Positions 2,124-60,220 of a stretch of 60,759 bases of DNA are shown here, in pieces. Below the pieces are notes generated by a model. It was not told the origin of the DNA and did no database searches. It saw only the letters and a program-made list of their open reading frames with translations. Each line of letters opens with the position of its first letter. The first letter of the stretch is position 1. The position numbers and the translations under genes are program-made. The stretch comes from an uncultured Dehalococcoidaceae bacterium (GTDB taxonomy: Bacteria > Chloroflexota > Dehalococcoidia > Dehalococcoidales > RBG-16-60-22): NCBI GenBank assembly GCA_964545815.1, contig CAZJGR010000002.1, forward strand, positions 1-60,759, written 5' to 3'.

Positions 2124-2595
2124 AGAACACCTCCTGGATGGAACCGCCCCTCCCCGAAACAAAATAGTCCATCCACCGCGTGAAGGGAATACAGGAGCCG
2201 GGGCGTTCCCCGCCGATCAGCCGAAAAGTGAACTCAACCGGATTGCCCTGGTTATCCTGCCCCAACACGGCGGCCTCGAACAGCGCCTGCGGCAACCCGT
2301 CTAACCCATGCTGGACGATCTGGTGGCCATTGTTGGAGTGGTAGAAAGCCCTATAGAGGTGCTGCCCCAGGCGATGGATAGGCTCCCCGAACCAGAGGTC
2401 CCGCGTGTCCTCTCCATAGCACCCTGTGACCGAGCAGACCTCAATCCATTTTGCGGCCGAATTGGGATGAGACCGGCGCAGCTCGTACCGCGCCCCCCGT
2501 TCGGCGGCCATCAGCAGGTAATTGGCCAGGTTGGTGTACGGCCACAAGACAAAAACTTTACTCTGCGTCAAAACAACATCGAATTTGTACGGCAT
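2113..2595 (-). CDS. hypothetical protein (160 aa)
   Basis: ATG 2595 behind AAGGGGGA. No motif recognised. Confidence 0.65.
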   Translation of the reverse strand: MPYKFDVVLTQSKVFVLWPYTNLANYLLMAAERGARYELRRSHPNSAAKWIEVCSVTGCYGEDTRDLWFGEPIHRLGQHLYRAFYHSNNGHQIVQHGLDGLPQALFEAAVLGQDNQGNPVEFTFRLIGGERPGSCIPFTRWMDYFVSGRGGSIQEVFYGR

Positions 2596-2637
2596 AGAAC
2601 CGTCCCCCTTTCTTGGCTTGCCTACCTGACAGGTAGG

Positions 2638-2850
2638 TTAGAATTGCATCCACTCGTGGTGAGGTGCGATGCCTAAACTGAGATACCCCCTGGCCAGCGT
2701 GCCCCTGCGAATGGCAGAAGAAAAGACCACGTTACAGCCCTTTTTGCGGGCACGCCCGGCCCCGAAATGCCGATTGACCCAACGCGCTAACCGTTGAGCC
2801 GCCTCCCCTCCGTGAAACTCTACCTCGTAGACCAGGCAGTCGTTTTCCAT
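2638..2850 (-). CDS. hypothetical protein (70 aa)
   Basis: ATG 2850 behind GAAGGGAGG. Confidence 0.6.
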   Translation of the reverse strand: MENDCLVYEVEFHGGEAAQRLARWVNRHFGAGRARKKGCNVVFSSAIRRGTLARGYLSLGIAPHHEWMQF

Positions 2851-2892
2851 TGGTATGAACCTCCCTTCTTTTAGATTAGATTGTGTTAAAGA

Positions 2893-2930
2893 CCGCCCCC
2901 TGGACTTATCCTCATAAGTCCAGGGGGCGG
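2893..2930. repeat. perfect 17-bp hairpin CCGCCCCCTGGACTTAT-cctc-ATAAGTCCAGGGGGCGG
   Basis: Arms at 2893-2909 and 2914-2930 are exact reverse complements. Belongs to the outer-arm family. Confidence 0.9.
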
Positions 2931-3157
2931 GCTTTAGTCCGCCATTGATTCACTTCTTGACAGCCTGCTTGTGGGCTTTCTCCGCCCGGGCCGTCTCCTT
3001 TAGGCTTTCAGTTCTCCTCCGGCTTCCATTGCCCGTATTGGCTATTACAGCCATCCGGGGCTTCCCGCGTTGCCCTCGGGGGATGCTGACTCACCCCTGG
3101 CGCGTTCGGCCTCAGCCTGCGGCCTTGTTGCTTTAAGCCGCCTTGCTAACGGCCCGC

Positions 3158-3547
3158 TTATGATGGTACTTTCGCCAAATCCACCCGGCCATATTCTACC
3201 CCTCCTGCTGATTTGGGATGGTCCGCATCCATAAGCAGTGTGCTAGACCGGTCCAGCCAGTCGTAAAGCGCTTGAAGGCCATCCACGAGACCCCCCGGGG
3301 TTGGCGCCCCCTTGTCCAGTTCGTGGAACATGATACGGAAATCCTCCAGGGGCAGGTCCTCCATAGCTCCCTTCGCGGCATACAGCCCACGCCGCTCTAT
3401 AGGAGTGAATAGGTCCACCACCGTCTCCGCCTGGCACAGAGGGCAGACCAGAATCGTACCGGCATCCAGGACCTCGACCTCGCCCGGGACAACCTGTCCG
3501 CAACCAAAACACAGAAAGGGCACCTGATACCTCATTACCTCGTCCAT
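3158..3547 (-). CDS. Zn-ribbon protein (129 aa)
   Basis: CFGCG...CPLCQ pairs. ATG 3547 behind GGGGAGGG. TAATG stop/start overlap with the upstream gene. Confidence 0.65.
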   Translation of the reverse strand: MDEVMRYQVPFLCFGCGQVVPGEVEVLDAGTILVCPLCQAETVVDLFTPIERRGLYAAKGAMEDLPLEDFRIMFHELDKGAPTPGGLVDGLQALYDWLDRSSTLLMDADHPKSAGGVEYGRVDLAKVPS

Positions 3548-3753: not shown

Positions 3754-3916
3754 GACCTGTACCTCCTTGCTCTGCAAGATTTTTGGTCCAGGGGGAAGAA
3801 CGAGCAATGTGTGACACAGTGCGTATCCCCCCTCCTTACGCACTGCCTCCTCTGCCGTTTGAGTTTTTCATCAGCGGTGAGAAGAACGATGCGACAAAAA
3901 CGGCATCTTGGCATGA

Positions 3917-4243
3917 TTAACCCCCTTTCAAGATACTATACAAAGCGCCCTCGCGGGGAAACCAGGCTGGCAGAAGCCAGAGGTCCATCTCGTGGAGGAG
4001 CGCCCATTCGGCAACCTCGAAACCTGAAGCCTCCCCCCCCCCATCACAGAGCGGGCAATCGAGGTCCGGCTCGCCTACACGGAGCGAGAGGTCATAGACA
4101 CACTCACCATTCTCCGTTAGGGCCGCCCCCTCGTCATCCGGAAAACAGAGCGGGCAGGAATAGGACTCCTGCAGCCACCCTCTGGTCTTGAGGTCCAGTT
4201 CGGCGATCTTGCGGGCCTTTGTGGAACCGAAGACGATACTCAT
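3917..4243 (-). CDS. Cys-rich hypothetical protein (108 aa)
   Basis: ATG 4243 behind AAAGGGGG. CPLC...CPLC pairs. Confidence 0.6.
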   Translation of the reverse strand: MSIVFGSTKARKIAELDLKTRGWLQESYSCPLCFPDDEGAALTENGECVYDLSLRVGEPDLDCPLCDGGGEASGFEVAEWALLHEMDLWLLPAWFPREGALYSILKGG

Positions 4244-4312: not shown

Positions 4313-4599
4313 ATTGGAGTTCAGCACTCCTCTCTCCCGGTCCCCCGCCCCAGCTCACCATGCTCGCCATGAAACTTTCAGTTTCTGCGGCGTTGGCTCA
4401 TGTTTCTTTTGCCAGGGTGGGTATGCCTACCCACCTCGCTACCCACACAACCTCGGCCCGCGCTCCCGCGGGCCTCCTCGACTGTGCCTCTCGCGCAACG
4501 TGGGGGCCAGGAGAGAGCAGGGCTGAAAACCCTGCCCAGATAGGCGGGTTTGCTGCCCGCCTGCCTGTCGCCTGCCTGTCGGCAGACAGGGCAGACAGG

Positions 4600-4848
4600 T
4601 CAGACAGGCCCCAAACGACGCTGACTGCAAGGCCGCGCCGTCCCATCCCATAGCTCGCGTACAAAACCCTGCCCCGAGCGTTGAGAGGGAGCAAAACAGT
4701 GGCCGTAATACCCGCCACCTTCGCTCAGAAGCTCCTCCAGCGTCGGCCCGTCCGCGCGGCCTTTGTAAAACTGGCAGGATGGACAAAAGCCTTCGTGGTA
4801 CATCCTGGTGAACTTACCGGCCCTTTTTCTTTTTCGGACGTCGTGCAT
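4600..4848 (-). CDS. hypothetical basic protein (82 aa)
   Basis: Internal ATG 4848 (MHDVRKRK) behind AAAGGAGA. The upstream part of the ORF-track frame overlaps the neighbouring gene. Confidence 0.5.
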   Translation of the reverse strand: MHDVRKRKRAGKFTRMYHEGFCPSCQFYKGRADGPTLEELLSEGGGYYGHCFAPSQRSGQGFVRELWDGTARPCSQRRLGPV

Positions 4849-5113
4849 CTTCACTGTCTCCTTTCGTCCGCACCCAACCCGCCTCGGCCACCGCCCCCAT
4901 CGCCGAACCCGGGGGAGCAATAAGCCGCTGTATCTGCCGCGCCACATCCTCGGCGATCTGAGCCGTAGAGCCTGTATTACCAGGATGCCGTATAGCGAGT
5001 TGGATATTAGACATCACGACCCAGGCCTGTACCGGAGTTAGAGAAAGTATTACCCGCTCGTCGCCTTGCTGGAGAAGTCCAAGTTCTATCAATGCCCTGT
5101 CTTGCTCATCCAT
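4814..5113 (-). CDS. hypothetical protein (99 aa)
   Basis: ATG 5113. Overlaps the end of the exonuclease gene. Lys-rich tail. Confidence 0.55.
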   Translation of the reverse strand: MDEQDRALIELGLLQQGDERVILSLTPVQAWVVMSNIQLAIRHPGNTGSTAQIAEDVARQIQRLIAPPGSAMGAVAEAGWVRTKGDSEDARRPKKKKGR

Positions 5114-5831
5114 CGGATAACCACCCTGTGAACCGAGACCTCTCCCAGGGATTTTTGATCCAGTGGGGAGGGACAGGCTCCGGTAAGACCATAGCCTCGG
5201 CGACCGTTAAAAGCCCATCGAGGGACTGAACGTGATCCGCTCCACGCCGGTCCTGCCACCATATATAATGTCTCCCCTTGTCGCTTCCCCCCAAAGATAG
5301 AATCTTGTCGAACACAGCCCCGGTCACCCGCACGTCCTGGCTGACGTATTCGAGGACTTTGTCGTATTCTCCCGCCTCCCACAGTACCGGGGCCTGTGCG
5401 CCGCCCATCCCCGCCGTCTTGCCAGGGATGCCAAAGCCATGGGCAACGGCCTCGAGGCCAACTGCAAAACCATGTTCACAAAAGAACTGAAACATCGGGT
5501 CTATGGACCTCAGTGCCAGTGCTCTACACTCCGCCCACAGGCCCGACTCCTCGGCCAACACCCTGAAGTCGAACGAAAGGCCATTCCAGGTAACGATGGT
5601 ATACCCATCGCCCGTCATCCGCTCCAGGTATGCCACCAGGACCTGCACTTGAGATTGTGGCATAGACTGCCAGGGCTTGCCATCGGGAGCGCCTACCCCG
5701 TACCACAACCTGACCTCCCCGTCACAGGGAAGGGTGGCCGCTACCGAAATGCCAAAAGGACGATAAGCCTCCCAGTCCGCCCCCTCGGGTATAGTGGCCG
5801 CAATCTCTAAGTCAAACGCTAACCAGCGCAT
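5106..5831 (-). CDS. DEDD-type 3'-5' exonuclease (DnaQ/PolB-exo-like)
   Basis: FDLE (Exo I), WNGLSFDFRVL (Exo II), YVSQDV (Exo III). Trimmed to ATG 5831 behind TAAGGAGG. Confidence 0.8.
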   Translation of the reverse strand: MRWLAFDLEIAATIPEGADWEAYRPFGISVAATLPCDGEVRLWYGVGAPDGKPWQSMPQSQVQVLVAYLERMTGDGYTIVTWNGLSFDFRVLAEESGLWAECRALALRSIDPMFQFFCEHGFAVGLEAVAHGFGIPGKTAGMGGAQAPVLWEAGEYDKVLEYVSQDVRVTGAVFDKILSLGGSDKGRHYIWWQDRRGADHVQSLDGLLTVAEAMVLPEPVPPHWIKNPWERSRFTGWLSDG

Positions 5832-5857: not shown

Positions 5858-6190
5858 TTACTGGCCGTCCCAACTATCACGAATCCGCTTGACCACCTCC
5901 TCTCGTATGCCGTGAATAGCAAAAGCCTCCGCCAGCCGTTGGACTGGCGGGCAGGAGCCGTCCAGGATGATCGCTTTGAACCAGACCTGATCGGAGATAC
6001 ACAAGAGCGACTGCACCTCCCACTGCCGGTGCCTCATCGCAATTAACACCTGCGCCTGCGCCTCGTTCTCGGCCAGTACCACGACCTGGAGGCATATTAA
6101 GGCCCCACGGCGCGGCTCAAAACTGGTCAAGACGGCGACATATAGATGGAGAGGGGTAATCTGTCTCTCGATAAGGATGTTATTCACCAT
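5858..6190 (-). CDS. hypothetical protein (110 aa)
   Basis: Trimmed to ATG 6190 (MVNNILIE) behind GGAAGGGGG. Confidence 0.55.
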   Translation of the reverse strand: MVNNILIERQITPLHLYVAVLTSFEPRRGALICLQVVVLAENEAQAQVLIAMRHRQWEVQSLLCISDQVWFKAIILDGSCPPVQRLAEAFAIHGIREEVVKRIRDSWDGQ

Positions 6191-6779
6191 GCCATACCCC
6201 CTTCCGCCGTCCATGCGAAGCGGACCCCAGGACATAGACCTTTAACTCCGGCTTGTATACCTGGAGTACGCCTCCCCGTTGAGGATGCGGCCGGGCATGG
6301 ATATAAGCCTGCTTGACCAGGTAACAAATGTGCGCCTCGGTTAGCTCGGTCAACCGCACTGCCTCCCGAACCGTGATCCAATTCGGGTCCTGGACCATAG
6401 CCTCCCTGACCAGCGTCTCGTGGGTTGGCATCAATACCACTACCTCCCGCAGAAGACCCTCAAGACGACGCCTGCGAACCGCGCCTCGCAACTTCCGCAA
6501 GGCCGCCGCCTCAATCTGCCGTACCCGTTCCCGAGTGATCCCCAGGAGAAGCCCGCACTCGTGAAGGGTCAGTCCATCCCCGAACCGGTAGATGACAACC
6601 AGGGCGTGCTTACTAGGCAAGCCCCTCACCCCTTCCAAAAGACACCCCTGGAGGGCGTCACTCCAACCCTGTTGTTCTCCGGCCCATGTGGCCTGTTGAT
6701 TGCCGGGGACGAACCCGCCGTGCGCCAACCGATAGACCAGCGCCGGGTTACGGACCGCGTTCATAATGCTGCTGCTCAT
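6180..6779 (-). CDS. sigma-70 region-4-only protein fused to an excisionase/MerR-type HTH
   Basis: LVVIYRFGDGLTLHECGLLLGITRERVRQIEAAALRKLR closely matches sigma region 4.1-4.2. No region 2/3 is visible. C-terminal WITVREAVRLTELTEAHICYLVKQ looks like an HTH_17-type helix-turn-helix. ATG behind AAAGGAG. Confidence 0.8.
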   Translation of the reverse strand: MSSSIMNAVRNPALVYRLAHGGFVPGNQQATWAGEQQGWSDALQGCLLEGVRGLPSKHALVVIYRFGDGLTLHECGLLLGITRERVRQIEAAALRKLRGAVRRRRLEGLLREVVVLMPTHETLVREAMVQDPNWITVREAVRLTELTEAHICYLVKQAYIHARPHPQRGGVLQVYKPELKVYVLGSASHGRRKGVWHGE

Positions 6780-6830
6780 CTTTTGTACTCCTTTCTTAAC
6801 CTAATTTAATTTGAGTGCCCACTGAGGCTT

Positions 6831-11218: not shown

Positions 11219-13000
11219 TTACAGCTCACGTACTCCACCACGGCGGCCCTCGGAAGCCTGCGCCTCCTTTTTTGCCGCCGCCGCCTGGACACGCATACTC
11301 TCAGGCACAAACTCAAGGTCGTTGACCTCGGCCAATGCCAGCCGCGCCATAAACTCGACGTCGGCCGTGGAAGGGATATACAGCGCCCGCGCGGTTTCCA
11401 AATCACTGGCAACCAGGTTGTCACGCCCCGCCCGCCGCGCCAATTGCACCGCCTTGAGAACCAGACCCTCGAGCTCGGCGCCGGTCCAGCCCCCCGTGTT
11501 TTCAGCGATAACAGCGATGGCTTTGTGGCCCTTCTTATCGCCTATCGTCACTCCGTACTTTTTGAGCATGACGTTGACCAGTACAGCCCGCTCGGCCGTA
11601 TACGCCGGAGGCAGAAGGGGTATCTTGACGTCAAACCTACCAGGACGCTTGAAAGCGGCATCCAGCAAGTCTGGCCTGTTGGTGGCCGCCAGGGTGAAAA
11701 TCCGTCCCCTGTGGCTGTTATCGCTCAAGAACTCCAACAGCCGCCCCAACTGATGACCACCCACGTCGCTGCCCTTGGGACCCTCGGACCGGGCCTGGAA
11801 CTTTTGGTCGATCTCATCAATGAATAGGATGCAGGGAGCAAGCGCCTCGATTGCCAGAAGCGTGCGCTCTAACTTTTGTTCAGATTGACCAACATACATC
11901 CCCAGGATTTTGGCGGGGTTGATTTTGGCACAATGGAACCCGGACTCGAACGCCAACGCCTCGGCGATGGCGGTCTTGCCAGTGCCAGCAGGACCCATCA
12001 ACAAGGCCCCCAGGGGCGCTTTTGGATCTCCGATCTGCAGGGCCTTGACGACGTCCGCAAAGAACGCTTTGGCCGCCTCGTGCCCCGCTACCATGTCGAA
12101 CCCGAATTGAGGCTCCCACAATTCCAGGATGTCCCCGAACTCAGACCGGACAATCGCGTCTTTACGCTCCTTGACCAATCTGGCATCCACCGGGCGCCCC
12201 TCGTACTGCGCCCGAAGGAAGACGTCCTCCAGGTTGACCAGGGACAGCAACGCCGTTGACCTGGCCAATTGCGGGAGGGGCATGTCTACCTCTTGACCCG
12301 ACTCCTGCACGTAAGCCTCCAACCATACCAACCGCTCGGCCTCGTTTGGTAGTGGGACCATGATGGCCTCGATGCCCGAACCGCTAACCCTCAGCGACTC
12401 GGCCACCTGGCCAAGATTGCGCGCCACGAGGATGATCAACCCGTTTTGACCGATTGCCATGTCCTGACTCCAGTTGGTCACCGAGGCAATGGCGACACGA
12501 TCTTCAGGCTGTAGATGGCCCGGGTCACCGGCCGGACATAGCATCTCGGCCTGGTTGAGAATAACCGCCACGCGTAACATCCTGACCTCGCCCCCGACGT
12601 CCTGTGGCTCAAGCCTCAGCAAACGCCCCAGGAGAGGGAAGACCTCGCCGGCCTTGCGTGGAAGCTCGACCTCCTGCGCAGACAGGCCGCCGCCGACCGC
12701 CTGATTCAACCCCATGGCCGCCGCCAGACTGCCTGCACCCATGGCCTCCAGACCGAGGACTTTGACGAATAATGCTTTTTGCTCATCGCCCCCAAATGTT
12801 AGACCACTCGCAACATCGTAACGAACCACGATGTCGCGCCGGACTAACATCTGCGAGAGGTAGTCCTGCACTCGAACCGTCCCCGACGCGTAGTCGTTGA
12901 CGTTGAAATGCAGGAGAAAAGTGTGCGCCAACTTCTGGCCGTACTTGGCGGCCAACTCGCTGGCCCACGCCACACCATTTGTCTTGACGCCGTTTTCCAT
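11219..13000 (-). CDS. classical-clade AAA+ ATPase (Ycf46/FtsH/Cdc48-like module, 593 aa)
   Basis: Walker A GPAGTGKT, Walker B ILFIDEID, ATNRPDLLDAAFKRPGRFD second region of homology. Confidence 0.9.
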   Translation of the reverse strand: MENGVKTNGVAWASELAAKYGQKLAHTFLLHFNVNDYASGTVRVQDYLSQMLVRRDIVVRYDVASGLTFGGDEQKALFVKVLGLEAMGAGSLAAAMGLNQAVGGGLSAQEVELPRKAGEVFPLLGRLLRLEPQDVGGEVRMLRVAVILNQAEMLCPAGDPGHLQPEDRVAIASVTNWSQDMAIGQNGLIILVARNLGQVAESLRVSGSGIEAIMVPLPNEAERLVWLEAYVQESGQEVDMPLPQLARSTALLSLVNLEDVFLRAQYEGRPVDARLVKERKDAIVRSEFGDILELWEPQFGFDMVAGHEAAKAFFADVVKALQIGDPKAPLGALLMGPAGTGKTAIAEALAFESGFHCAKINPAKILGMYVGQSEQKLERTLLAIEALAPCILFIDEIDQKFQARSEGPKGSDVGGHQLGRLLEFLSDNSHRGRIFTLAATNRPDLLDAAFKRPGRFDVKIPLLPPAYTAERAVLVNVMLKKYGVTIGDKKGHKAIAVIAENTGGWTGAELEGLVLKAVQLARRAGRDNLVASDLETARALYIPSTADVEFMARLALAEVNDLEFVPESMRVQAAAAKKEAQASEGRRGGVREL

Positions 13001-15001: not shown

Positions 15002-15274
15002 CTACCTTGCCCGGCTGATCCACACATTGTCGATCTCGTCCACGCACCGCCGGACTATCCGCAACCCCTCAATGGTGACCTCACCGTACCGAGCCACGAT
15101 GCTATTGATACCCACGCATTCCCGCGCCGGAAGGCAGACCGCTACCCGGGCCAGACGCCCCTGCACTTTTTTGGAGAACTCGGCATCGGTTTCGTCTGGA
15201 AATTGATATGCGCTGACGCGCACGGCGGCCTCTTGTGACTCCACCGCTCGGCGCAACTGATCAAGGATGTTCAT
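15002..15274 (-). CDS. hypothetical protein (90 aa), first gene of the leftward early operon
   Basis: ATG 15274 behind AAAGGAG. Confidence 0.65.
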   Translation of the reverse strand: MNILDQLRRAVESQEAAVRVSAYQFPDETDAEFSKKVQGRLARVAVCLPARECVGINSIVARYGEVTIEGLRIVRRCVDEIDNVWISRAR

Positions 15275-15291
15275 CTTATTAATCTCCTTTG

Positions 15292-15875
15292 ACTACGGAT
15301 TCCTCGGGCTTATCCACCCGTCAGGCTCTAGGAAGTCGGCGAGCCTCCTACATTTTACGCCTTACCTGACATAGCAGGTTAGAGCCTGGCGGAAGGATAA
15401 ACCGAAACTCCCGCTTTGTGTACGATTGCCATCATTGCACAGTATCCACCGCCGCTGGCCGCATAGTACAACGTACCAGCTATCGATGTAGCATTACCCC
15501 CGCGCTCGGCCTCACGTACCACTATCATCAGGCTGTTTTTGGAAGCTAACTTTGACCTGTTGGTCTATCCCATCTCTCCGAAGAGTCCCCCCCGACTAGG
15601 CGGGGTTACTTCACTCAGAAACTCCATCGCTGGAGGCTGCCTGAGTTGGACCGGTCTCCCTCCGTTTCCACTCTTTGGGAGAGAAGAAGCTTACGCTACC
15701 TTGACACCCCTCTTGTGGCTTACAATCCCCCCGCTTTCTCCGCCATGTTCTCGGCTGTTTCCCCCTCCGCTGGCCCGGTGGCTTTGCGAGTTTCCCCGCC
15801 TCCGTTTCTACACCTGGGCGACCTTCGGGCTGCCTACCCCACTGAGGGGCTTGAGGATTGCTCACTTTTAATTCT
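15292..15875 (-). ncRNA. candidate large structured RNA / 5' leader (~585 nt), class unknown
   Basis: No credible ORF on either strand. Begins ~7 nt downstream of a consensus extended -10 promoter. Minus-strand reading gives these hairpins: GCGGG-GAAA-CTCGC (15799-15786); two-tier ACTCAG..CTCCA-GCGA-TGGAG..CTGAGT (15646-15613); CTC-UUCG-GAG (15585-15576); TCTCCC...GGGAGA enclosing a G-GAAA-C loop (15682-15655); CCCCG-6 nt-CGGGG (15605-15590). A long-range helix pairs 15861-15853 with 15730-15722. A ~24-bp near-perfect duplex pairs 15404-15381 with 15330-15305. Confidence 0.6.
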
Positions 15876-15881
15876 ACCTTA

Positions 15882-15910
15882 ATTATACCAGGTGTTACAA
15901 TTAAATGCAA
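15882..15910 (-). promoter_or_regulatory. sigma70-type promoter P-earlyL (TTGCAT-17-TGgTATAAT)
   Basis: On the minus strand, -35 TTGCAT is at 15910-15905 and -10 TATAAT at 15887-15882. The spacer is exactly 17 nt and a TGn extended -10 is present. Confidence 0.75.
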
Positions 15911-15920
15911 TAGGAAAGAG

Positions 15921-15950
15921 GTACTATACCTCGTACTATACCTCGTACAC
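15921..15950. repeat. tandem 12-mer GTACTATACCTC x2.5 just upstream of the -35
   Basis: Units at 15921-15932, 15933-15944, and partial at 15945-15950. Confidence 0.9.
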
Positions 15951-16026
15951 TGCTTTTGCGAATAACGCAATTACAAATAACGTAAAGGCTGGCCACCTTG
16001 TAGCGCAATAAAACAGCCGCCCCTCG

Positions 16027-16200
16027 TAGGCAGAGCGTGACCTGCAGGACCTCGCTGTAACCGGCGCGACTTGCTCGACTTTGCGCCAACCGGCGTGGCT
16101 TGCTCGACTTTGAGCGGCAGAGCGCCTGACTGTAGTCAAAGGTAGGCAGAGCGCCGGACTGCGCGCGCCTGGATGCAGAGCGCCGGACTGAGGTAGGCAG
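16027..16200. repeat. block of ~29-bp periodic direct repeats (iteron/centromere-like)
   Basis: AACCGGCG(C/T)G(A/G)CTTGCTCGACTTTG at 16059 and 16088. GCAGAGCGCC(T/G)GACTG at 16118, 16147 and 16175, with a degenerate copy at 16031. The region is noncoding. Confidence 0.8.
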
Positions 16201-16310
16201 GCTGCATTTGGTTAGATTGCGCACTTTTAAGCCATAAGCCGTGCACGGCGCCTGCTTATCGCCAACATACCCCCCCCCACTTTACCGTGCTAGACTTTTG
16301 CCCCTATCCC

Positions 16311-23147: not shown

Positions 23148-23176
23148 ATTGTATCACAAACCACTGTTCTTGTCAA
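23148..23176 (-). promoter_or_regulatory. sigma70-type promoter P-L2 (TTGACA-17-TGaTACAAT)
   Basis: On the minus strand, -35 is at 23176-23171 and -10 at 23153-23148. 17-nt spacer with TGn. Confidence 0.75.
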
Positions 23177-23219
23177 TAGCGAAGTATATAAAACTAGTAA
23201 CTTTTACCTCTGTAAACCT

Positions 23220-23243
23220 CTGAATTTATCATGATAAGTCCAG
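23220..23243. repeat. 24-bp element CTGAATTTATCATGATAAGTCCAG (core palindrome TTATCATGATAA)
   Basis: Exact reverse complement of 56930-56953. Ends 5 nt before the -35 of the late promoter. Confidence 0.9.
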
Positions 23244-23248
23244 GGCGC

Positions 23249-23277
23249 TTGACAAAATGTACCAACGGGAGTATACT
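23249..23277 (+). promoter_or_regulatory. sigma70-type promoter P-late (TTGACA-17-TATACT)
   Basis: -35 at 23249-23254, -10 at 23272-23277, spacer exactly 17 nt. Confidence 0.75.
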
Positions 23278-41514: not shown

Positions 41515-44500
41515 ATGCCTAGCGATTCCTATGTTTTCCGAGTAAAACTGGAGGGCGGTGACGCCGTTAAACAGGCCATTGCCATCCGCAAGGAAGTCGA
41601 GAAAGAACTCGGCCAGGCGGCCGGCTTTGATCTGGGCGGCATTGAGACCGCTACCGGACAGCTGAAGGAACTGGCTGCGTCCGCTCGCGGTGTTGGACGG
41701 GCCATGACCGCCGGATTCAGGGAGTCGGTTAATCTCCTCCTGACCGATATCGGCACGCTACAACAGCAAGTCAACCAGGTAGTTCGCGCCGGGACCGGCC
41801 CCGTCGAGGAGGCCATGAAGGAACTCGGCGTGGTTGGCCTCGATGCCCTGAACATCGTAGATACCGGCTCGACCCAAGCCACGCAGAAAATGGCCCGCCT
41901 GACCACCGAAATCAAGGGTGCCCAGGCGCAGATTCAGGCCCTACAAACCCGCATGGCTCAACTCGGCGCCCAACCCATGGTCGTCCCCGGATCTCTGAGT
42001 GGCGAAGTCAAAACAGTTGGAGCTTTGTTTAAGGAGCTAACCACCAGCCGCTGGCAAGAAGTCCGCCGTATGTTTAGAGCGGCCAAAGAGGAGCTGGCCC
42101 CCCTGCGGGCCGAAATCGAGGCTCAGGCCGAAGCCCTCCGCACCCAAACCGCCCCCGCTTATGCCGCCGCCAAATCCGAAGTCGACCAACTGGCCGCCGC
42201 TCAAGATAAGCTGATCGAGGAACAAGCTCAGTATCAGCGTGCTCAACAAGAATTGGGAAGAAGCCTGCGCATCGCGCCCCGCTACAAGGAACTCAGCGCC
42301 GAAATCAAGCTCTACGGCGAGGCGATTATAGCTGCCACAGATAACCTGACCGCACTCCGGTCCATCATGGTCACCGGAGGCATGACCGAAGAACAGGCCG
42401 AATTGGCCGCCAAAGAGAAACAGTATGCCCAGAGCCTGGAACAAAGCACCGTCTGGTGGAAAGTCCTGACCGAAAGCGCCGGAGAACATAGCAAGGCCGT
42501 CGAATATGTAGCACTCAGTGACGAGAACGCAGCCAAAGCCCTGCGCGGGATGTTGGAGGCGTACGAGCAAATCAGCAAATTGCAGACCGGCATCAGCAGG
42601 GGCATCGGCACAATGGGCCGCCTGGGAGAAAAGGTCGAACTACCGGCCGCCGCCGAAGGGACCCTGGCTACATTTGTCATCGCCGAAAGGCAGTTAGGTA
42701 CAGATACCCGACTGGCCAGCGATGAACTACTCAGGCAGAAAAGAGAACTTGTCGGATTGACCAAGGCCCTGGACGAAGCCGCCCTGGCCGCCCAAGGGCT
42801 GGACAAGGTCCAGCGCGCCGCCGTCTCTCGCGTCCAGGCTATCGGTATCAGGGAAGTCAAGACGGCCACCCCCCTGCGTGGCCGGACCGTAGAGGAAGCC
42901 GGAGCCACCCTAACACCCGTTCTGGCGCAGATTATGGCGCAGACCGAGGCCATCAAAAAAGGTGCCCTTGTCGAGCTGGACCGCCTCGAACAAGAGGGCA
43001 TCAAGCGGCAACCCTTTGGCTTCCTGATCCGCTTTGCTCAAAAAGCCCGCGCCGTTATCGTCGGCGAATCCATCATCCCCGATATGGTCACCGCCATCAA
43101 TGAGTGGCTGGCCAAAATCGGACTCGAAAACCCCTTCCAACCCCTCGCCATACAGGCCAACCAGGCCGGAGCCATGATCCAAACCGGCCTGCAGGAACGC
43201 CTCTCTGCTATCAATACCGACCAGGCCGAACAAGAACTGAAGGACCTCCGCGCCGAACTGCAGCGCACCGCCAACGCCATCGAAAGCCAGCTGGTTGTAA
43301 CCGGCGAAGCCTCACAATCCTACAAGATGGCTTATGCCGGCTATGCCGCCGAAGTGAAACGGGTCAGAGGAGAAGACCCGACCGCCATGGGCCTGCTGGC
43401 CCAGGGTAAGGCCCTGAAGGGAACCGGCGTCCGTGGCGAATTCAATGAACTCGCAATCATTGACGAGGGTTACCAGGCGATAAAGACCACCGTGGAGGAG
43501 CGCCAACGATTCAGCCAGGAAGAAACGGCCAAACTCCTCGAACTGGAGCACCGTTACTCGGCCATGCGACAGGTAGAACTCTCACTCGATCAGGAACTGG
43601 CCCAACGTAAGGTCACGGCCCTGAAACTGGCAATGGAACAGGCCTTTGAGACCGGCGACTTTGACCAGTTCGAGGCCCTGACCAAAGAGGCCGTGGCCGA
43701 AGACGAGCGCCTGGGTGAGATACAAAAGGAGTTGGCTTACCAGCGAGAGTCCGTTACCGGTTACGCTATGGAAGCCGCCGAGGAACAGCTGGCCCAATCC
43801 AAAGCCCTGGCCAAACGGACCATCCCCGTCGCTGCCCCTGCCGCCGCTGTAGGTACGGCCGTGGCCGGCGAAATGATCATGCCTCACATCACCGCAACCC
43901 AGGTCAAGAACGTCGAGAGCTATGCTGCAGCCATCAGAGACCTGGGACAGGCCATGACCGAGACCCGCCGTGTACTCCCCATCATCACGGAGGCCGAGCA
44001 AGAACGGGCCGTCGCGGCCGCTAAAGCCGTCGCTGAAGTCGAAGAGGCCGAGAAACGCCGCACTGTCGCCGCCCAAAAGACCCTCGTCGAGACCGAGGCC
44101 ATTGAACAGCGCCTGACCGCAACCCGGGCATCTCACCTCCGGGTCAGAGAGGAAGCTATTCGCCTCAGCGCCGCCTTTGAATTGGAAGCTCTACGGCAAA
44201 CAGCTATCGGCATGGAGGGAGAAGAAACCCGCAAGACGGCCGAAGTCCAGCACCATGCCCGCGTGCGAGAAATCGCCGTCGAGAAGGGAGCAGACCTGGA
44301 AGTCCAGGCCTCCCGCCGCAAGACCATCGCCGTCTCGGCCGAGGAGCGCCGCTTACTCCAGGAACAACGCTCCCAACAGCGCCTGCGAGAGATGGCCGTC
44401 AAAGCCTCCATCCAGGTCACGATGGAGCAGGAGAAACGGAAAACCCTCGCCCTGTCCGAGGAAGAGCGACGGCGCACTATCGCTCAGCAGGGAGAACTTA

Positions 44501-47500
44501 ATGACCGGGTCTCCAATGAGAAGAAGGCCATCCAGCAGACAACCGCGGCTGCGGCCGCGGGTGGACGTGGCGTCGGACCCACCGCGGCCGATATCGCCCG
44601 CTACGGCGGTGGAGGATTAGGAACCCTGTCCTGGGCCGTCCAGGAAGCCCAAAGCGCACAAATGGGCATCAGAATGTTATCCTACGACATTCAGTATATG
44701 TCCCGCTCGCTGCTCATGGCCGGTGCGGCTATGACCGGCCCGCCCATCCTGGCCATGAAGCGCTTTAACGACTATACCGCCACCACCAACCGCGCCGCGC
44801 GGGCCATGGGCCTGGCCCGTTCAGAGAGCGATTACTTGCGAGGAGCGATCATTGACCAGAGCCGCGCTATGGCCCTGGTCCGCCCCGAAGAAATGGCGCA
44901 GGGATTGTACCTGTGGGCCACCGGCGTGGGCGCCGCCGCCAAGAACCAGGCCCAGTTGAGGGACGTCATAGCCCAAACCATCCCCATCCAAAAATTGGCT
45001 TACATGCAGCAGATTGAGCTACCGGCTGCCGTTACCGCTGTAGCCGGCATCATGGCCGAATTCAGGATGGAATCCACCGAAACCGAGCGAGTTGTCTCCG
45101 TCCTGGACTCGACCGCCGACCGAACCTTTGCCACCGTTGACGACCTGGCTGAAGCCTTCAAATTTGTCGGCCCCATTGCCCACGACCTGGGCATCTCGAT
45201 GGAAGAGGTCGCCGGTGTGTTTGGCCTCCTGGCCGACGCCAATATCCGGGGGAGCATGGCCGGCCGCGCTTTTCGCCAGATGACCATCTCGTTCACCAAG
45301 ACCTCGGCCGAAGAAGACGAGGTCCTGAACCGCCTCCTGCGCCGCAATGTAGAGTTGGGAGAGACCTGGAGAGACCTCGTTTTCCCCAACGGCAAGTTTA
45401 TCGGCCTGACCCGCTACATAGACCTCCTGGCGGCCGCCACCGAAGACTTGACCGACCAGGAACGCGCCCAGACATTCGCCACCCTGTCCACCGCTAACGA
45501 ATTGCCCGTCCTGACCGCTTTGGTCTCTAAACAGATTGCGGCCAGGGAAAAAGGTATCAACGTCATCCGCGCCGAAGCCAACCAGACCATGGGGGTCATC
45601 GATAGCGAGGTGCGCGCCTACGCTATGTGGGAGAAAGAAACCACCGGCAACTATCGCACCCTGGAAGGCGCCCAGGAGTCCTTCAACCGCAAATTCACCG
45701 ATGCCACCGAGAGCGAGAACTACCAGATTAAAAAACTGCAAGTCCAGTGGGATGCTGCCATGCTCTCCCTGGGCCAGAGCACAATGGAGCTGGCTCTGCC
45801 CTACCTGGATGACCTGGGGCAGACCATAGATACCCTGACCAAATACCTGACAGAGAATCCGTGGGTGGTTACGGCCCTGCTGGCGGCCGGGGCAACCCTG
45901 ACCACTATCGGAGTTCTAGGCTCAACTGTAGGAACCCTCCTGCGAGTGGCAACGGCCATGCGGCAACTGGGCACAATGAAACGCCTCCTGGATGCCGCCC
46001 ATGCGGCCGCTGCTGTCCAACAGGCCGCAGCAGCCGCTGCCGCTGCCACCACCGAAGGTGCCGCCGTCGCGGCCGCAGCCACGACCGAAACCGCTGCCGT
46101 CGCGGCCGGGGCAACCGAAGAAGCCGCCGCCCTGGCTGCCGGTGTAACCGATGAAGGTGCGGCCCTGATTGCCGGGGCAACCGAAGAAGCCGCTGCCCTG
46201 GCTGCCGGTGTAACCGCCGAAGGTGCGGCTATAACTGCCGGCATAACCACCGAAGCCGCGGCCCTGACTGCTGCAGCCACGACCGAAGCTGCAGCCATAA
46301 CCGCTGCGGCCACGACTGAGGCGGGGGCCGTAACTGCCGCCGCCACAACTACAGCCGGTGCCACGACAGCCGGAGGCATCCTGTCAGGTATATTGGGTAC
46401 GGCCGGGACTATCCTGTCTGGCGCAGCCGCCGTCCTGGCCGGTGTAGGTCTGACAGTCGGCGGCCTTTTGGTCGGTTTCCTGGGCGCTACCGGCCTGGTA
46501 GACCTCCTCCGCCTGGCCAAAGGCGAAGAACTCCTCGGCCCGTTGGAGTCCCTCAATCTTTTGTGGGATTCCATACGAGGGAGTATTGCCCTGACCGTTG
46601 GCACAGGGGGCGGTATAGCTTCCTGGATCATGGGAGAAGATGCCGTCGAACAGGCTGAAGCCTTTGACCGCGCCGCCTTCGAAGCTGCCAAGACCCTGGG
46701 GCTGATCGACAAAAACCTGCAATGGATAGACCAGAACACACAAGCCGTAACCGCCTCGGTCGAGGAATTGCCTGCCGATACCGAAGCCTGGCGTAAGGAA
46801 CTGCGGGACGGTGGCGACGATATGGAGAACATGAAGAAGCAAACCGAACGCGCCGCCGACGAAGCCCGCCGCCTGGGGGATAACCTGGAACAACTTCCGG
46901 CCCTGACCGGCCTGGGCCTGGCTGCCTTCAGCGAAGCCGAGCTACAGGCCATTGACGAATTGGAGGATTACCTAAAACGGCGTAACGAAATGGTCGAAGA
47001 TCAGAATGAGGACCTGGCCAAGATGGCCCGGGGCTATGCCAAAGAGGATAGAGATGCTGAAGCGAAATACCTGGCCGACCGCGCCAAGCTGGAAGCCGAA
47101 CTCGGAGCGGTGCAGGAGGAACCTCTGTGGAGAACCGGCGAGGAGGCACAGCGTGCGGCCAAGGCAGAAGCCAAAGCACTCAAGGACTACCAGCAGAGCG
47201 TGGAAAGAGCCACCGCAGATCACCTGAAGAAGCTGGCCGATATGGCCCTCGACCATGATGATAAAATGGAGGATCTCGAGGCGGCCAGGGATGCCAAGGG
47301 TATCATCCAGGAACAACGGCGCTATAGCCGCCAGGTCAGGGATGAAGAAGACCAGTTCGGTGAGCAATTGACCGACCTCCAAACCCGCCTGGAGGAAACC
47401 CGGCAGGAAGAAAGAACTAAGCTGGAGGAAACCCGCCAGGAACGGCGAAAAGACCTCCAGGACAAGCTGGCCGAATTGGACGCCACGTATGCCCAGGAGA

Positions 47501-48126
47501 AAGCGGGCCGGCAAGCCGATTACCAGGAAAAGGTCGCCGAGAAAAAGCTACAGGGCCAACAGGACCTGATAGACCTGGAACAGAGCCATGCCGAGAAGCT
47601 GGCAAAGATCATGGGCTGGGAGGATGAAATCAGACAACAACTCCGGCTGAAGTACGTCGACCGCGCCGCCGACCTGCGCGCCCACCTGGCTGAGATGGAG
47701 AAAATCTATGCGGCCATGTATGACCTGGCCACCCAGCCCGCCGCCGTACCGGCCGTCGGCACGCTCGCCCCCAGGGAGGCCAGCGCCACAGCCTGGGCCG
47801 CCCACGGCCTCACGCGCACTACCCGCCGCAGACAGGCCGGAGGCTATGCCGATTATGGCTCCTATGTGCTGGGTGAGACGGGACGGGAATTTGTCCTGAG
47901 CAGTGGCACAACCGGCGCTCTCGAGCGCGCCATCGGCACACTGACTCAACAGCGGGTCGCGGGCCTGGCTACCCAGGAAGGCTATAATCGCCTGGACATC
48001 CGGGTAACAGCCGATAGACATTTCAGCCCCGACTTCGCCGAACAGACCGAGGAAATGGTCAGGCAGCAAATAGCAACCCTGGCCGACCGGGTATCTCGCA
48101 ACCGGCCGGGAGCCTACCGTCAATAA
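41515..48126 (+). CDS. tape measure protein (2203 aa)
   Basis: Size, position, long coiled-coil content, central hydrophobic segments, Ala/Thr 11-mer repeats. Confidence 0.9.
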   Translation: MPSDSYVFRVKLEGGDAVKQAIAIRKEVEKELGQAAGFDLGGIETATGQLKELAASARGVGRAMTAGFRESVNLLLTDIGTLQQQVNQVVRAGTGPVEEAMKELGVVGLDALNIVDTGSTQATQKMARLTTEIKGAQAQIQALQTRMAQLGAQPMVVPGSLSGEVKTVGALFKELTTSRWQEVRRMFRAAKEELAPLRAEIEAQAEALRTQTAPAYAAAKSEVDQLAAAQDKLIEEQAQYQRAQQELGRSLRIAPRYKELSAEIKLYGEAIIAATDNLTALRSIMVTGGMTEEQAELAAKEKQYAQSLEQSTVWWKVLTESAGEHSKAVEYVALSDENAAKALRGMLEAYEQISKLQTGISRGIGTMGRLGEKVELPAAAEGTLATFVIAERQLGTDTRLASDELLRQKRELVGLTKALDEAALAAQGLDKVQRAAVSRVQAIGIREVKTATPLRGRTVEEAGATLTPVLAQIMAQTEAIKKGALVELDRLEQEGIKRQPFGFLIRFAQKARAVIVGESIIPDMVTAINEWLAKIGLENPFQPLAIQANQAGAMIQTGLQERLSAINTDQAEQELKDLRAELQRTANAIESQLVVTGEASQSYKMAYAGYAAEVKRVRGEDPTAMGLLAQGKALKGTGVRGEFNELAIIDEGYQAIKTTVEERQRFSQEETAKLLELEHRYSAMRQVELSLDQELAQRKVTALKLAMEQAFETGDFDQFEALTKEAVAEDERLGEIQKELAYQRESVTGYAMEAAEEQLAQSKALAKRTIPVAAPAAAVGTAVAGEMIMPHITATQVKNVESYAAAIRDLGQAMTETRRVLPIITEAEQERAVAAAKAVAEVEEAEKRRTVAAQKTLVETEAIEQRLTATRASHLRVREEAIRLSAAFELEALRQTAIGMEGEETRKTAEVQHHARVREIAVEKGADLEVQASRRKTIAVSAEERRLLQEQRSQQRLREMAVKASIQVTMEQEKRKTLALSEEERRRTIAQQGELNDRVSNEKKAIQQTTAAAAAGGRGVGPTAADIARYGGGGLGTLSWAVQEAQSAQMGIRMLSYDIQYMSRSLLMAGAAMTGPPILAMKRFNDYTATTNRAARAMGLARSESDYLRGAIIDQSRAMALVRPEEMAQGLYLWATGVGAAAKNQAQLRDVIAQTIPIQKLAYMQQIELPAAVTAVAGIMAEFRMESTETERVVSVLDSTADRTFATVDDLAEAFKFVGPIAHDLGISMEEVAGVFGLLADANIRGSMAGRAFRQMTISFTKTSAEEDEVLNRLLRRNVELGETWRDLVFPNGKFIGLTRYIDLLAAATEDLTDQERAQTFATLSTANELPVLTALVSKQIAAREKGINVIRAEANQTMGVIDSEVRAYAMWEKETTGNYRTLEGAQESFNRKFTDATESENYQIKKLQVQWDAAMLSLGQSTMELALPYLDDLGQTIDTLTKYLTENPWVVTALLAAGATLTTIGVLGSTVGTLLRVATAMRQLGTMKRLLDAAHAAAAVQQAAAAAAAATTEGAAVAAAATTETAAVAAGATEEAAALAAGVTDEGAALIAGATEEAAALAAGVTAEGAAITAGITTEAAALTAAATTEAAAITAAATTEAGAVTAAATTTAGATTAGGILSGILGTAGTILSGAAAVLAGVGLTVGGLLVGFLGATGLVDLLRLAKGEELLGPLESLNLLWDSIRGSIALTVGTGGGIASWIMGEDAVEQAEAFDRAAFEAAKTLGLIDKNLQWIDQNTQAVTASVEELPADTEAWRKELRDGGDDMENMKKQTERAADEARRLGDNLEQLPALTGLGLAAFSEAELQAIDELEDYLKRRNEMVEDQNEDLAKMARGYAKEDRDAEAKYLADRAKLEAELGAVQEEPLWRTGEEAQRAAKAEAKALKDYQQSVERATADHLKKLADMALDHDDKMEDLEAARDAKGIIQEQRRYSRQVRDEEDQFGEQLTDLQTRLEETRQEERTKLEETRQERRKDLQDKLAELDATYAQEKAGRQADYQEKVAEKKLQGQQDLIDLEQSHAEKLAKIMGWEDEIRQQLRLKYVDRAADLRAHLAEMEKIYAAMYDLATQPAAVPAVGTLAPREASATAWAAHGLTRTTRRRQAGGYADYGSYVLGETGREFVLSSGTTGALERAIGTLTQQRVAGLATQEGYNRLDIRVTADRHFSPDFAEQTEEMVRQQIATLADRVSRNRPGAYRQ
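46048..46377 (+). repeat. 10 x 11-aa Ala/Thr/Glu repeats inside the tape measure gene
   Basis: TTEGAAVAAAA / TTETAAVAAGA / TEEAAALAAGV ... TTTAGATTAGG. Confidence 0.85.
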
Positions 48127-59838: not shown

Positions 59839-60156
59839 ATGCCGATTAAGGACCCTGACCTTTACCCGCCCGACTGGTGGCGAATCAGCCTGCAGGAGCG
59901 TGTGAACAGCGGCTGGCGCTGCCGGTTTTGCAGGGCCGAACAGGGAGAACCGCACCCGGTCACCGGCTCCAGAGTAGTCCTGACCGTGGCTCACCTGGAC
60001 CACAACCCGCAAAACAACGACCCGGACAACCTGGCGGCTTTGTGCCAAAAGTGTCATCTGGCCTACGATCAGCAGGAACACCTACACCACGCCGCTCAGA
60101 CCAGGCGAAGAAGGAAAGTGGAAGCCGGGCAACTAGAGCTATTAGAGGCCCCATAG
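59839..60156 (+). CDS. HNH endonuclease (phage packaging-associated type)
   Basis: CRFC...VLTVAHLDHNPQNNDPDNLAALCQKCHLAYD. Trimmed to ATG 59839. Confidence 0.85.
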   Translation: MPIKDPDLYPPDWWRISLQERVNSGWRCRFCRAEQGEPHPVTGSRVVLTVAHLDHNPQNNDPDNLAALCQKCHLAYDQQEHLHHAAQTRRRRKVEAGQLELLEAP

Positions 60157-60220
60157 CTCAAATGGGAGAGCAACGGTCTCCAAAACCGTGAGGTGAGGGT
60201 TCGAGGCCCTCTGTGGGCCG
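60147..60220 (+). tRNA. tRNA-Trp (anticodon CCA)
   Basis: Manual fold gives: D arm GCTC/GAGC; anticodon arm ACGGT-CTCCAAA-ACCGT; variable loop GAGGT; T arm GAGGG-TTCGAGG-CCCTC; G discriminator. The acceptor stem GGCCCCA/TG(T)GGGCC needs one bulged base. Overall close to bacterial tRNA-Trp. Confidence 0.7.

Follow-up and report, generated by a model that had tools for sequence, protein, structure and literature searches.

Introduction

Processing of untranslated RNA by RNase III is a familiar feature of phage early operons, as exemplified by the R0.3 and R1.1 sites of T7 and by the site in the N-leader of lambda pL. In rRNA operons, the 5' and 3' flanks pair to form processing stems, and the enclosed RNA is excised by RNase III. 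Other described systems that bear on the locus reported here are the lambdoid antitermination leaders and the large RNAs ROOL, GOLLD, and HEARO.

The window analyzed in this study is the whole contig of 60,759 bp, which is complete and represents a temperate siphovirus-like phage. Pfam matches on the contig comprise an integrase (1091-1975), a gpA-type terminase, a Mu-like portal, capsid protein E, and a DnaC/IstB-like loader, and the 2203-aa ORF at 41515-48126 is probably the tape measure. The tract under study is best read as a lengthy 5' untranslated leader that belongs to this phage's second leftward transcription unit.

Results

Transcription-Unit Context and Promoter

The minus strand of the window carries the genes from 1 to ~22.5 kb. 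The upstream leftward unit, which encodes a MarR-type HTH protein, an FtsK-like ATPase, and a DUF488 protein, ends at an intrinsic terminator (16379-16350, minus strand) consisting of a 13-bp stem followed by TTTTATT. From this terminator to position 15275 extends a gene-free gap of ~1.1 kb, larger than an earlier note on this DNA had stated, and the tract under study makes up the lower 60% of it. The following unit encodes, in order, a 90-aa ORF, a Zn-ribbon protein, a DUF1257 protein, an AAA+ ATPase (11219-13000), a DUF3150-like protein, RusA, a sigma-70 region 4 protein, and the integrase. A promoter at 15910-15882 restarts transcription past the terminator, and the first early operon does not begin with this leader. 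The proposal that the tract heads the leftward early operon was therefore not borne out, as strong divergent early promoters are located at ~23.15-23.28 kb.

The promoter is of the sigma-70 type (minus strand) and contains a -35 element TTGCAT (15910-15905), a 17-nt spacer, and an extended -10 element TGgTATAAT (15890-15882). These elements are present as previously given, but the -35 hexamer matches TTGACA at only 3/6 positions, so that the description "near-perfect" does not apply. The promoter is conserved in position and sequence in 6/6 related phages, in which the -35 element is a perfect TTGACA, and its conservation among phages with saturated synonymous sites backs the promoter call. 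The arrangement common to the gaps of the relatives is TAGTAC-N4-GTaCTATTGACa, 17 nt, (TG)nTATAAT, N4, and GTAGAA. The predicted transcription start site (TSS) is at ~15875 on the minus strand, which gives a leader of 601 nt. A -10-like hexamer, TAGAAT (15876-15871, minus strand), lies at the predicted TSS; it is TAGAAA in the relatives, and GTAGAA is invariant in 6/7 phages. This region is a conserved initially transcribed sequence and possibly a sigma-dependent pause element.

Operator- or iteron-like DNA repeats were found upstream of the promoter (16230-16017), where 29-bp-spaced repeats and three copies of CTGCCTAC occur (minus-strand reading). An inverted copy of the latter, GTAGGCAG, is present at ~+39 (15837-15830, minus strand). 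A 16-nt direct repeat, TTAAAAGTG(C/A)GCAATC, has copies at 16230-16215 and 15871-15856 (~-350 and +8), and the 22-nt inverted repeat to which GTAGGCAG belongs (15851-15830 with 16200-16179) straddles the promoter. Adjoining the -35 element, two tandem copies of GAGGTATAGTAC (15944-15921, minus strand) carry a TAGTAC half-site and are a probable operator. The same half-site lies just upstream of or overlaps the -35 element in all relatives, forming the palindrome TAGTAC-N4-GTACTA in L003 and L008, and TAGGCA is found at +6 in all relatives. The DNA repeats bracketing the promoter look like the operators of a tightly regulated promoter.

These repeats also fit an unlikely alternative, in which the region acts mainly at the DNA level as a genetic switch or as a partition or replication site, with protein-binding repeats around a regulated promoter and a transcribed spacer that has no RNA function. 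The contigs of three relatives end within this intergenic region, which fits as well. However, the repeats are concentrated at the promoter (16230-15830) and do not extend over the remaining 500 nt of the leader. A replication origin was rejected, since the DnaA boxes are not clustered and the cumulative GC skew shows no turn here.

Coding Potential of the Leader

The leader RNA (15875-15275, minus strand, ~601 nt) is purine-rich, with 27% A, 33% G, 22% C, and 18% U. Its earlier description as an ORF-free tract was confirmed with codon log-odds, for which 27 long contig ORFs served as the training set. By this measure of native codon usage, all ORFs in the gap resembled non-coding frames (-0.23 to -0.07 per codon, compared with 0.24 +/- 0.12 for true genes) and ranked no higher than the 0.4th percentile of windows from true genes. 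The sense strand has stop-free stretches of 180-260 nt, so that a protein-coding gene might have been overlooked, such as one in the 84-119-aa frame (15611-15970) or the 49-aa frame (15379-15528); however, open frames in several phases are expected because the sequence is T-poor. Reading of the sequence revealed no Shine-Dalgarno (SD) sequence ahead of any internal start, and the GTG at 15864 is ~11 nt away from the predicted TSS. The gap was left empty by gene callers in all related contigs. In the leaders of the relatives, substitutions are spread evenly over the codon phases (19/20/23 and 46/43/47), and the indel lengths (1, 2, 4, 6, 10, 11, etc.) do not follow a triplet pattern. Accordingly, neither the codon usage, nor a start with an SD, nor, in the relatives, the 3-nt periodicity of a protein-coding gene was found for the leader. 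A missed gene was rejected on the basis of the codon-usage scores and the even phase substitutions in the relatives, and is extremely improbable.

Folding of the Leader and the 3' Hairpin

The hairpins listed in the earlier note are all present in the sequence. They comprise a GAAA-capped 5-bp hairpin, GCGGG-GAAA-CUCGC (15799-15786), which contains one of four GAAAC motifs; a two-tier hairpin of ACUCAG/CUGAGU and CUCCA-GCGA-UGGAG (15646-15613), which is marginal against shuffles (z = -2.38); and, as seen in the sequence, a UUCG-capped stem, CUC-UUCG-GAG (15585-15576), and the stems UCUCCC/GGGAGA (15682-15655) and CCCCG/CGGGG (15605-15590), all on the minus strand. GGAAAC occurs three times in the leader, against 0.2 expected.

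The minimum free energy (MFE) of the whole leader was -214.9 kcal/mol, compared with -206 +/- 6.5 for dinucleotide shuffles (z = -1.3 to -1.4 for 601-611 nt), and the plus strand gave z = -0.9. Sliding windows of 120 nt over the leader yielded z from +1.2 to -2.05. The long-range pairing previously proposed between 15861-15853 and 15730-15722 exists as a 9-bp complementarity but is no better than in shuffles: the 5' domain that includes it gave z = -0.42, and the best duplex between the 5' part and downstream sequence in the window, which also includes it, reached -35.5 kcal/mol, a value equaled in 16% of the shuffles.

Hairpins with at least three contiguous pairs and a GNRA or UNCG loop were counted against 300 shuffles, a test prompted by the earlier note's own observation of tetraloops. 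The sense strand contained eight, several of them weak, G.U-rich, or mutually exclusive, compared with 1.7 +/- 1.3 expected (0/300 shuffles), and the antisense strand contained one compared with 1.1 expected. Across the contig, overlapping 600-nt windows from both strands (2408 in all; mean 1.35, sd 1.29) gave no higher count than that of the leader. GNRA tetranucleotides as such were not enriched in the leader (36 versus 31.8). The coding region 6060-6809 on the minus strand reaches seven capped hairpins, nearly the eight of the leader.

Directly 5' of the SD lies a long irregular hairpin (15407-15302, minus strand) with two small hairpins inside. What had been called a ~24-bp near-perfect duplex was found with its arms at 15403-15380 and 15330-15307, but these are 83% complementary as DNA; as RNA, 22/24 positions of the main stem are paired, counting two U.G pairs. 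The region 15410-15300 folded at -47.3 kcal/mol with z = -3.77 on the minus strand and z = -5.29 on the plus strand. Because it folds equally well on the plus strand, the hairpin is by energy alone just an inverted repeat and not strand-specific. The view of the tract as tetraloop-rich and strand-specific thus holds for the capped hairpins, whose excess is confined to the sense strand, but not for the 3' hairpin. The same two observations divide on the DNA-level reading, which is favored by the equal stability of the 3' hairpin on both strands and disfavored by the strand-specific tetraloop excess. Taken together, the structure of the window's leader is mostly not beyond chance, with the 3' hairpin and the sense-strand tetraloop hairpins as the two exceptions.

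The 3' hairpin ends 15 nt ahead of the SD (GGAG, 15287-15284), which is followed by the ATG at 15274, both positions being as described before, and the SD is unpaired in the MFE fold of the leader. With its SD, the first gene of the unit (90 aa) spans 15287-15002 on the minus strand. The only match of its product in a collection of 5.8 billion proteins was the product itself. The stem 15403-15380/15330-15307 matches what is expected of an RNase III-processed leader, namely a duplex of about two helical turns (at least 20 bp, internal loops being tolerated) near the first cistron, and a long hairpin domain is located just 5' of the first SD in 7/7 phages (the window and six relatives).

Leaders of Related Phages

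Relatives of the AAA+ ATPase, ~50% identical, were found on contigs of up to ~72 kb, several of which measure 60-72 kb. They define six distinct syntenic metagenomic phage loci (L003, L004, L006, L007, L008, and L009); L004 is identical to L005 and L119 and was counted once. The shared gene order begins with an FtsK-like gene, to which some loci add a RecA-like gene, and continues with DUF488 and small genes, a gene-free gap, variable small genes, DUF1257, DUF2997, the AAA+ ATPase, and DUF3150; the longer related loci also have RusA and the sigma-70 region 4 protein. Further contigs reached through AAA+ or FtsK homologs end short of the leader. No BLAST match to the gap sequence was obtained in phage and plasmid collections, single-protein scans of IMG/VR yielded no relatives, and an RNA-specific pattern had no match in IMG/VR. 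Scanning viral and metagenome contigs with the promoter pattern retrieved nearly exclusively generic sigma-70 promoters and one true relative, L119. Alignment-based locus searches picked up generic AAA+ Walker motifs, and their matches were unrelated FtsH-like loci.

In the relatives, the same slot is occupied by a gene-free leader of 400-670 nt with the same purine-rich composition. The earlier reading of a promoter-driven non-coding RNA leader on the sense strand is upheld by this comparison, as the six relatives fill the slot likewise behind the same promoter. The genes after the leader vary between the phages, and the 90-aa gene of the window is without a homolog; the conserved item in the slot is therefore the RNA and not the first gene.

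The first 350 nt of the leader were 79% identical between L003 and L006 compared with 39% at the 4-fold sites of the AAA+ gene, 88% compared with 56% between L003 and L007, and 66% compared with 37% between L006 and L009. By these sequence comparisons, the leader of the relatives is a constrained non-coding RNA. The ~35 nt at the start of the transcript are complementary to a stretch lying 300-430 nt further on, and the two form a helix of two stems with an internal loop. In L004, L006, L008, and L009 this duplex reached -32 to -41 kcal/mol compared with -25 to -31 for shuffles (0-1/200), and the long-range 5'/3' helix was significant in four to five relatives. It was found in MFE and centroid folds alike. 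When four sequences are aligned, pairing in register extends to 90.9% of cells, and shifting the partner by 1-3 columns lowers this to 20-41%; three pairs change on both sides in a compensatory manner. Hand counting of the non-Watson-Crick pairs in these closing helices gave ~10 sense-strand G.U pairs and no A.C pairs, which favors RNA pairing over a DNA inverted repeat and thus speaks against the DNA-level reading. L003 and L007 instead have a local 5' hairpin and a GGUCG(C/U)UC/GA(G/A)CGA(C/U)C pairing with a compensatory change.

Past the closing helix, a long hairpin domain immediately precedes the first SD in all of the relatives. The purine-rich core enclosed by the helix folds weakly as a consensus (-18 kcal/mol over 524 columns, covariation term +0.46), and only a small GGNC-RAGG-GNCC hairpin in it covaries.

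The profile HMM of the relatives (nhmmer) detected nothing in the window's leader. Global identity between the window and the relatives over the leader was 42-49%, which is taken to be near the level of unrelated sequences of this composition. Local alignment was marginal (p ~0.01-0.02) and confined to the first 45-120 nt (AGAA...G(A/G)GCAATC...GGGTAGGCA). Ten 6-mers were shared compared with 4.7 +/- 2.1 expected, and shared short motifs such as GGAAACG and GGTAGGCA were only slightly above chance. By sequence, then, the window's leader has no detectable homology to that of the relatives past the first 50-100 nt. Common to both are the promoter, slot, length, composition, and architecture (a purine-rich part, a long hairpin, and a free SD), but not the sequence. 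Since homology is not detectable, the evidence for constraint and for the closing helix applies to the relatives and not to the window. The covariation check that had been suggested was answered for the relatives' leader, which is non-periodic and has compensatory pairs; for the window's own sequence, no homolog was found.

Comparison with Known RNA Families and Functions

The suggested cmscan search against Rfam was run, and no family matched the region. With Rfam 15, the leader gave no match to ROOL, GOLLD, HEARO, OLE, RNase P, tmRNA, group I/II introns, riboswitches, or 6S RNA; at E<=10, the region 15100-16300 yielded only two junk hits of 14-15 bits. The leaders of the relatives had no Rfam 15 match either. 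The sole match at gathering score in the whole window was a tRNA at 60147-60219. A large, ornate structured RNA, as the earlier note had envisaged, is not supported in the window, given the lack of an Rfam 15 match, a global fold no better than shuffles, and the lack of a homolog of its own.

An alternative at the RNA level is a discrete trans-acting phage ncRNA of an undescribed family, whose purine-rich domain, once excised, would engage some host or phage target (a decoy that binds an RNA-binding protein or defense factor, for instance), with the mRNA-leader role being secondary. This is fairly unlikely. It agrees with a purine-rich core conserved far above neutral in the relatives, with a closing helix whose compensatory changes bound a discrete domain of 300-430 nt, with the sense-strand excess of tetraloop hairpins in the window, and with the variable genes that follow the leader, including the window's first gene without a homolog. 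However, the window lacks a terminator between this RNA and the first gene, its core has no homology to that of the relatives, and the consensus fold of the latter core is weak. Several specific functions were also considered and rejected. GGA and ANGGA motifs were not enriched over dinucleotide shuffles, which argues against a CsrA-type sponge, and the same was true of SD-like motifs for a ribosome or anti-SD sponge and of ARN motifs for an Hfq sponge. A G-quadruplex or polypurine R-loop was dismissed because GGGG was not enriched and the purine runs were shorter than in shuffles. For an antisense regulator of another phage transcript, no significant complementarity was found elsewhere in the phage genome, and hence no target for a trans-acting RNA.

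A processive-antitermination leader had also been put forward. On the model of lambda N/nut, HK022 put, or Q/pR', hairpins or a promoter-proximal pause would load a factor onto RNA polymerase to make it terminator-resistant. This reading draws on the boxB-like hairpin with a 5-bp GC stem and GAAA loop at +77 to +90 and on the conserved -10-like element at the start site, which resembles the sigma-dependent pause elements of lambdoid late promoters. The leaders of the relatives also contain a C-rich, G-poor tract (C/G up to 6.25), which could be a Rho site inside the leader, but the window's leader has almost no C>G windows. Apart from the boxB-like hairpin, the hallmarks of lambda N/nut (boxA with boxB, an arginine-rich N-type protein, and downstream terminators) were not found: sequence reading revealed no boxA (CGCUCUUA-like) next to the hairpin at 15799-15786, and the product of the first gene, for which no homolog was found, lacks an arginine-rich N-terminus. 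As to the features of Q/pR' (6S RNA type), the -10-like TAGAAT at 15876-15871 is conserved, and no intrinsic terminator is present within the leader (15875-15275). Nor was a convincing one seen on the minus strand from 15300 to ~900. Antitermination is very unlikely because there are no terminators to override, neither downstream in the unit nor inside the leader.

Discussion

The reading that we tentatively prefer is that the second leftward operon has a 5' leader acting in cis and probably processed by RNase III, its promoter being flanked by operator-like repeats. Among the options offered by the earlier note, the RNase III-processed regulatory leader fits best, with the long hairpin 5' of the first SD in the window and in six relatives as the predicted cleavage site. 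In this model, the conserved sigma-70 promoter, which lies after the strong terminator, would produce a ~600-nt non-coding, purine-rich leader that acts in cis at the RNA level. The ~100-nt hairpin with its 24-bp stem would be a candidate site for processing or stabilization by a double-strand-specific nuclease of the RNase III type. Processing at this 3' hairpin would create a mature 5' end and thereby set the translation or stability of the operon mRNA, and the upstream purine-rich part with its small GNRA- and UNCG-capped hairpins may persist as a stable leader fragment, whether cut loose or retained. A host RNase III with suitable specificity is assumed here, and the TSS, ends, and processing are predictions.

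Sequence comparison suggests such a leader through the promoter and position conserved in six syntenic phages, the non-coding nature of the tract, and the constraint and long-range helix of the relatives. From folding models, the 3' hairpin of the window (z = -3.77), the sense-strand excess of tetraloops, and the unpaired SD would point the same way. Against it, the window's global fold and most of its local folds are no better than shuffles, and the 3' hairpin, being equally stable on the plus strand, could be a DNA inverted repeat.

A bolder proposal, unlikely in our view, is that the window's leader and its positional counterparts constitute an undescribed class of 0.3-0.6-kb phage RNAs. 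These would be transcribed from a repressor-controlled conserved promoter, excised at long double-stranded stems, and active in trans early in infection or upon induction, perhaps as decoys against a host RNA-binding or defense factor, with cores that have evolved past recognizable similarity.

Should the preferred cis-acting leader be processed as proposed, an uncultivated temperate phage clade would rely on a very long leader RNA to control a whole operon, whose products include recombination functions, a sigma-like protein, and the integrase. The RNA element of the relatives is better supported than that of the window. It is conserved, shows compensatory base changes, is absent from Rfam, and is open to modeling and a wider search. 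The gain for the window is more modest, in that its annotation is corrected to a real regulated promoter and a 0.6-kb 5' UTR rather than a missed gene, and the hairpin 15407-15302 provides one concrete testable site in its leader.

Among known systems, ROOL, GOLLD, and HEARO share with the window RNA the size class (0.4-0.7 kb), the phage location, and the non-coding nature; however, the window RNA has no covariance-model match (E<=10), does not fold above shuffles, and is fused directly to the mRNA. The lambdoid leaders (nutL/boxB-N, pR'-6S RNA-Q, and HK022 put) similarly have a promoter-proximal RNA element, and the boxB-like GAAA hairpin and the conserved -10-like element at the start are points of likeness. 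The window differs from them in having no terminators to override and no identified N- or Q-like protein, and its leader is several times longer.

Parallels are also found among RNase III substrates. The two-stem closing helix of the relatives, with its internal loop, resembles the RNase III processing stems of rRNA and T7. As in rRNA operons, the start of the transcript (~35 nt) is paired with a distal stretch, here 300-430 nt away, and the helix shows compensatory changes, whereas the best 5'/downstream duplex of the window is no better than shuffles, and the RNA enclosed in the relatives is purine-rich with little conserved pairing. With the RNase III leaders of T7 and lambda pL, the window and its relatives share a strong early promoter, an untranslated leader, and a long irregular hairpin (~20 bp or more) directly upstream of the first ribosome-binding site. 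The window's leader differs from these in its much greater length (~600 nt), in the lack of sequence similarity, and in that its cleavage is only predicted. The leader most likely belongs with the processed operon leaders already known from phages.

Leader RNA of the related phages

In the six related metagenomic phage loci, the leader behind the conserved promoter was a non-coding RNA that is strongly conserved and has a purine-rich core, located at 2911-3330, 5023-5510, 2545-3000, 431-858, 4727-5080, and 3204-3585 in L003, L004, L006, L007, L008, and L009, respectively. A long-range 5'/3' helix, in which compensatory changes were present, closes this RNA. Near its 3' side, the leader contains a C-rich, G-poor tract (C/G of 6.25 across 78 nt in L008), which could be a Rho-loading site.

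Hairpins capped by GNRA or UNCG loops were found in coding DNA of the window, where the region between positions 6060 and 6809 on the minus strand showed the second-highest density in the contig (7 hairpins when stems of 3 bp or more are counted, 5 when 4 bp or more are required). This region overlaps the gene for a sigma-70 region 4 protein (6180-6779).

DNA repeats and G tract around the promoter

The conserved promoter of the window is flanked by operator- or iteron-like DNA repeats (16017-16230, 15830-15871, and 15921-15944), including repeats spaced 29 bp. Three copies of CTGCCTAC were located upstream of the promoter and an inverted copy at +39, GAGGTATAGTAC units were arranged in tandem at the -35 element, and the two copies of a 16-nt direct repeat lay at approximately -350 and +8. 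In the equivalent place, at the start of L007, approximately six tandem GGCATCATCGCCGCCT(N3-4) copies were detected.

A homopolymeric G tract (7-15 G) in the sequence context GGT(A/G)G(n)TAT was found 3' of the upstream operon's terminator in all seven phages, the window and its six relatives. The tract lies approximately 100 to 400 nt on the upstream side of the conserved promoter, at 16270-16278 on the minus strand of the window and at about 2768-2778 (L003), 4802-4816 (L004), 2393-2399 (L006), 283-290 (L007), 4534-4541 (L008), and 3069-3075 (L009).

Within this same intergenic region, three metagenomic contigs terminate that come from related phages and are independent of one another: L005 (identical to L004) and L007 end approximately 200 and 390 nt upstream of the promoter, respectively, and L334, from a further related phage, approximately 170 nt past the last upstream gene. 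These ends could result from repeat- or poly-G-driven assembly breaks, to which the G tract may contribute; alternatively, they could represent a true genome end in some members.

Elsewhere in the window, two near-consensus promoters stand back-to-back at 23148-23277, the leftward one being TTGACA-17-TGnTACAAT and the rightward one TTGACA-17-TATACT, each with 11 of 12 positions matched. This pair marks where the phage has its real divergent early control region.

Other RNA elements in the relatives

A structured element of approximately 120 nt, in which a closing stem surrounds three hairpins and one of these hairpins has a GNRA cap, was common to L006 (about 3004-3125) and L003 (about 3922-4040), and six pairs had both sides changed in this comparison of only two sequences. 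The Rfam search returned no match for the element, and its conserved 18-mer was not found in the window with up to 3 mismatches allowed and had no exact match in IMG/VR; the element is a candidate new RNA motif. A known family was matched in the leader region of L003, where the sequence at 3805-3905, directly after an inserted 131-aa gene, scored 44.4 bits as a twister-sister self-cleaving ribozyme, above the Rfam gathering score of 34.
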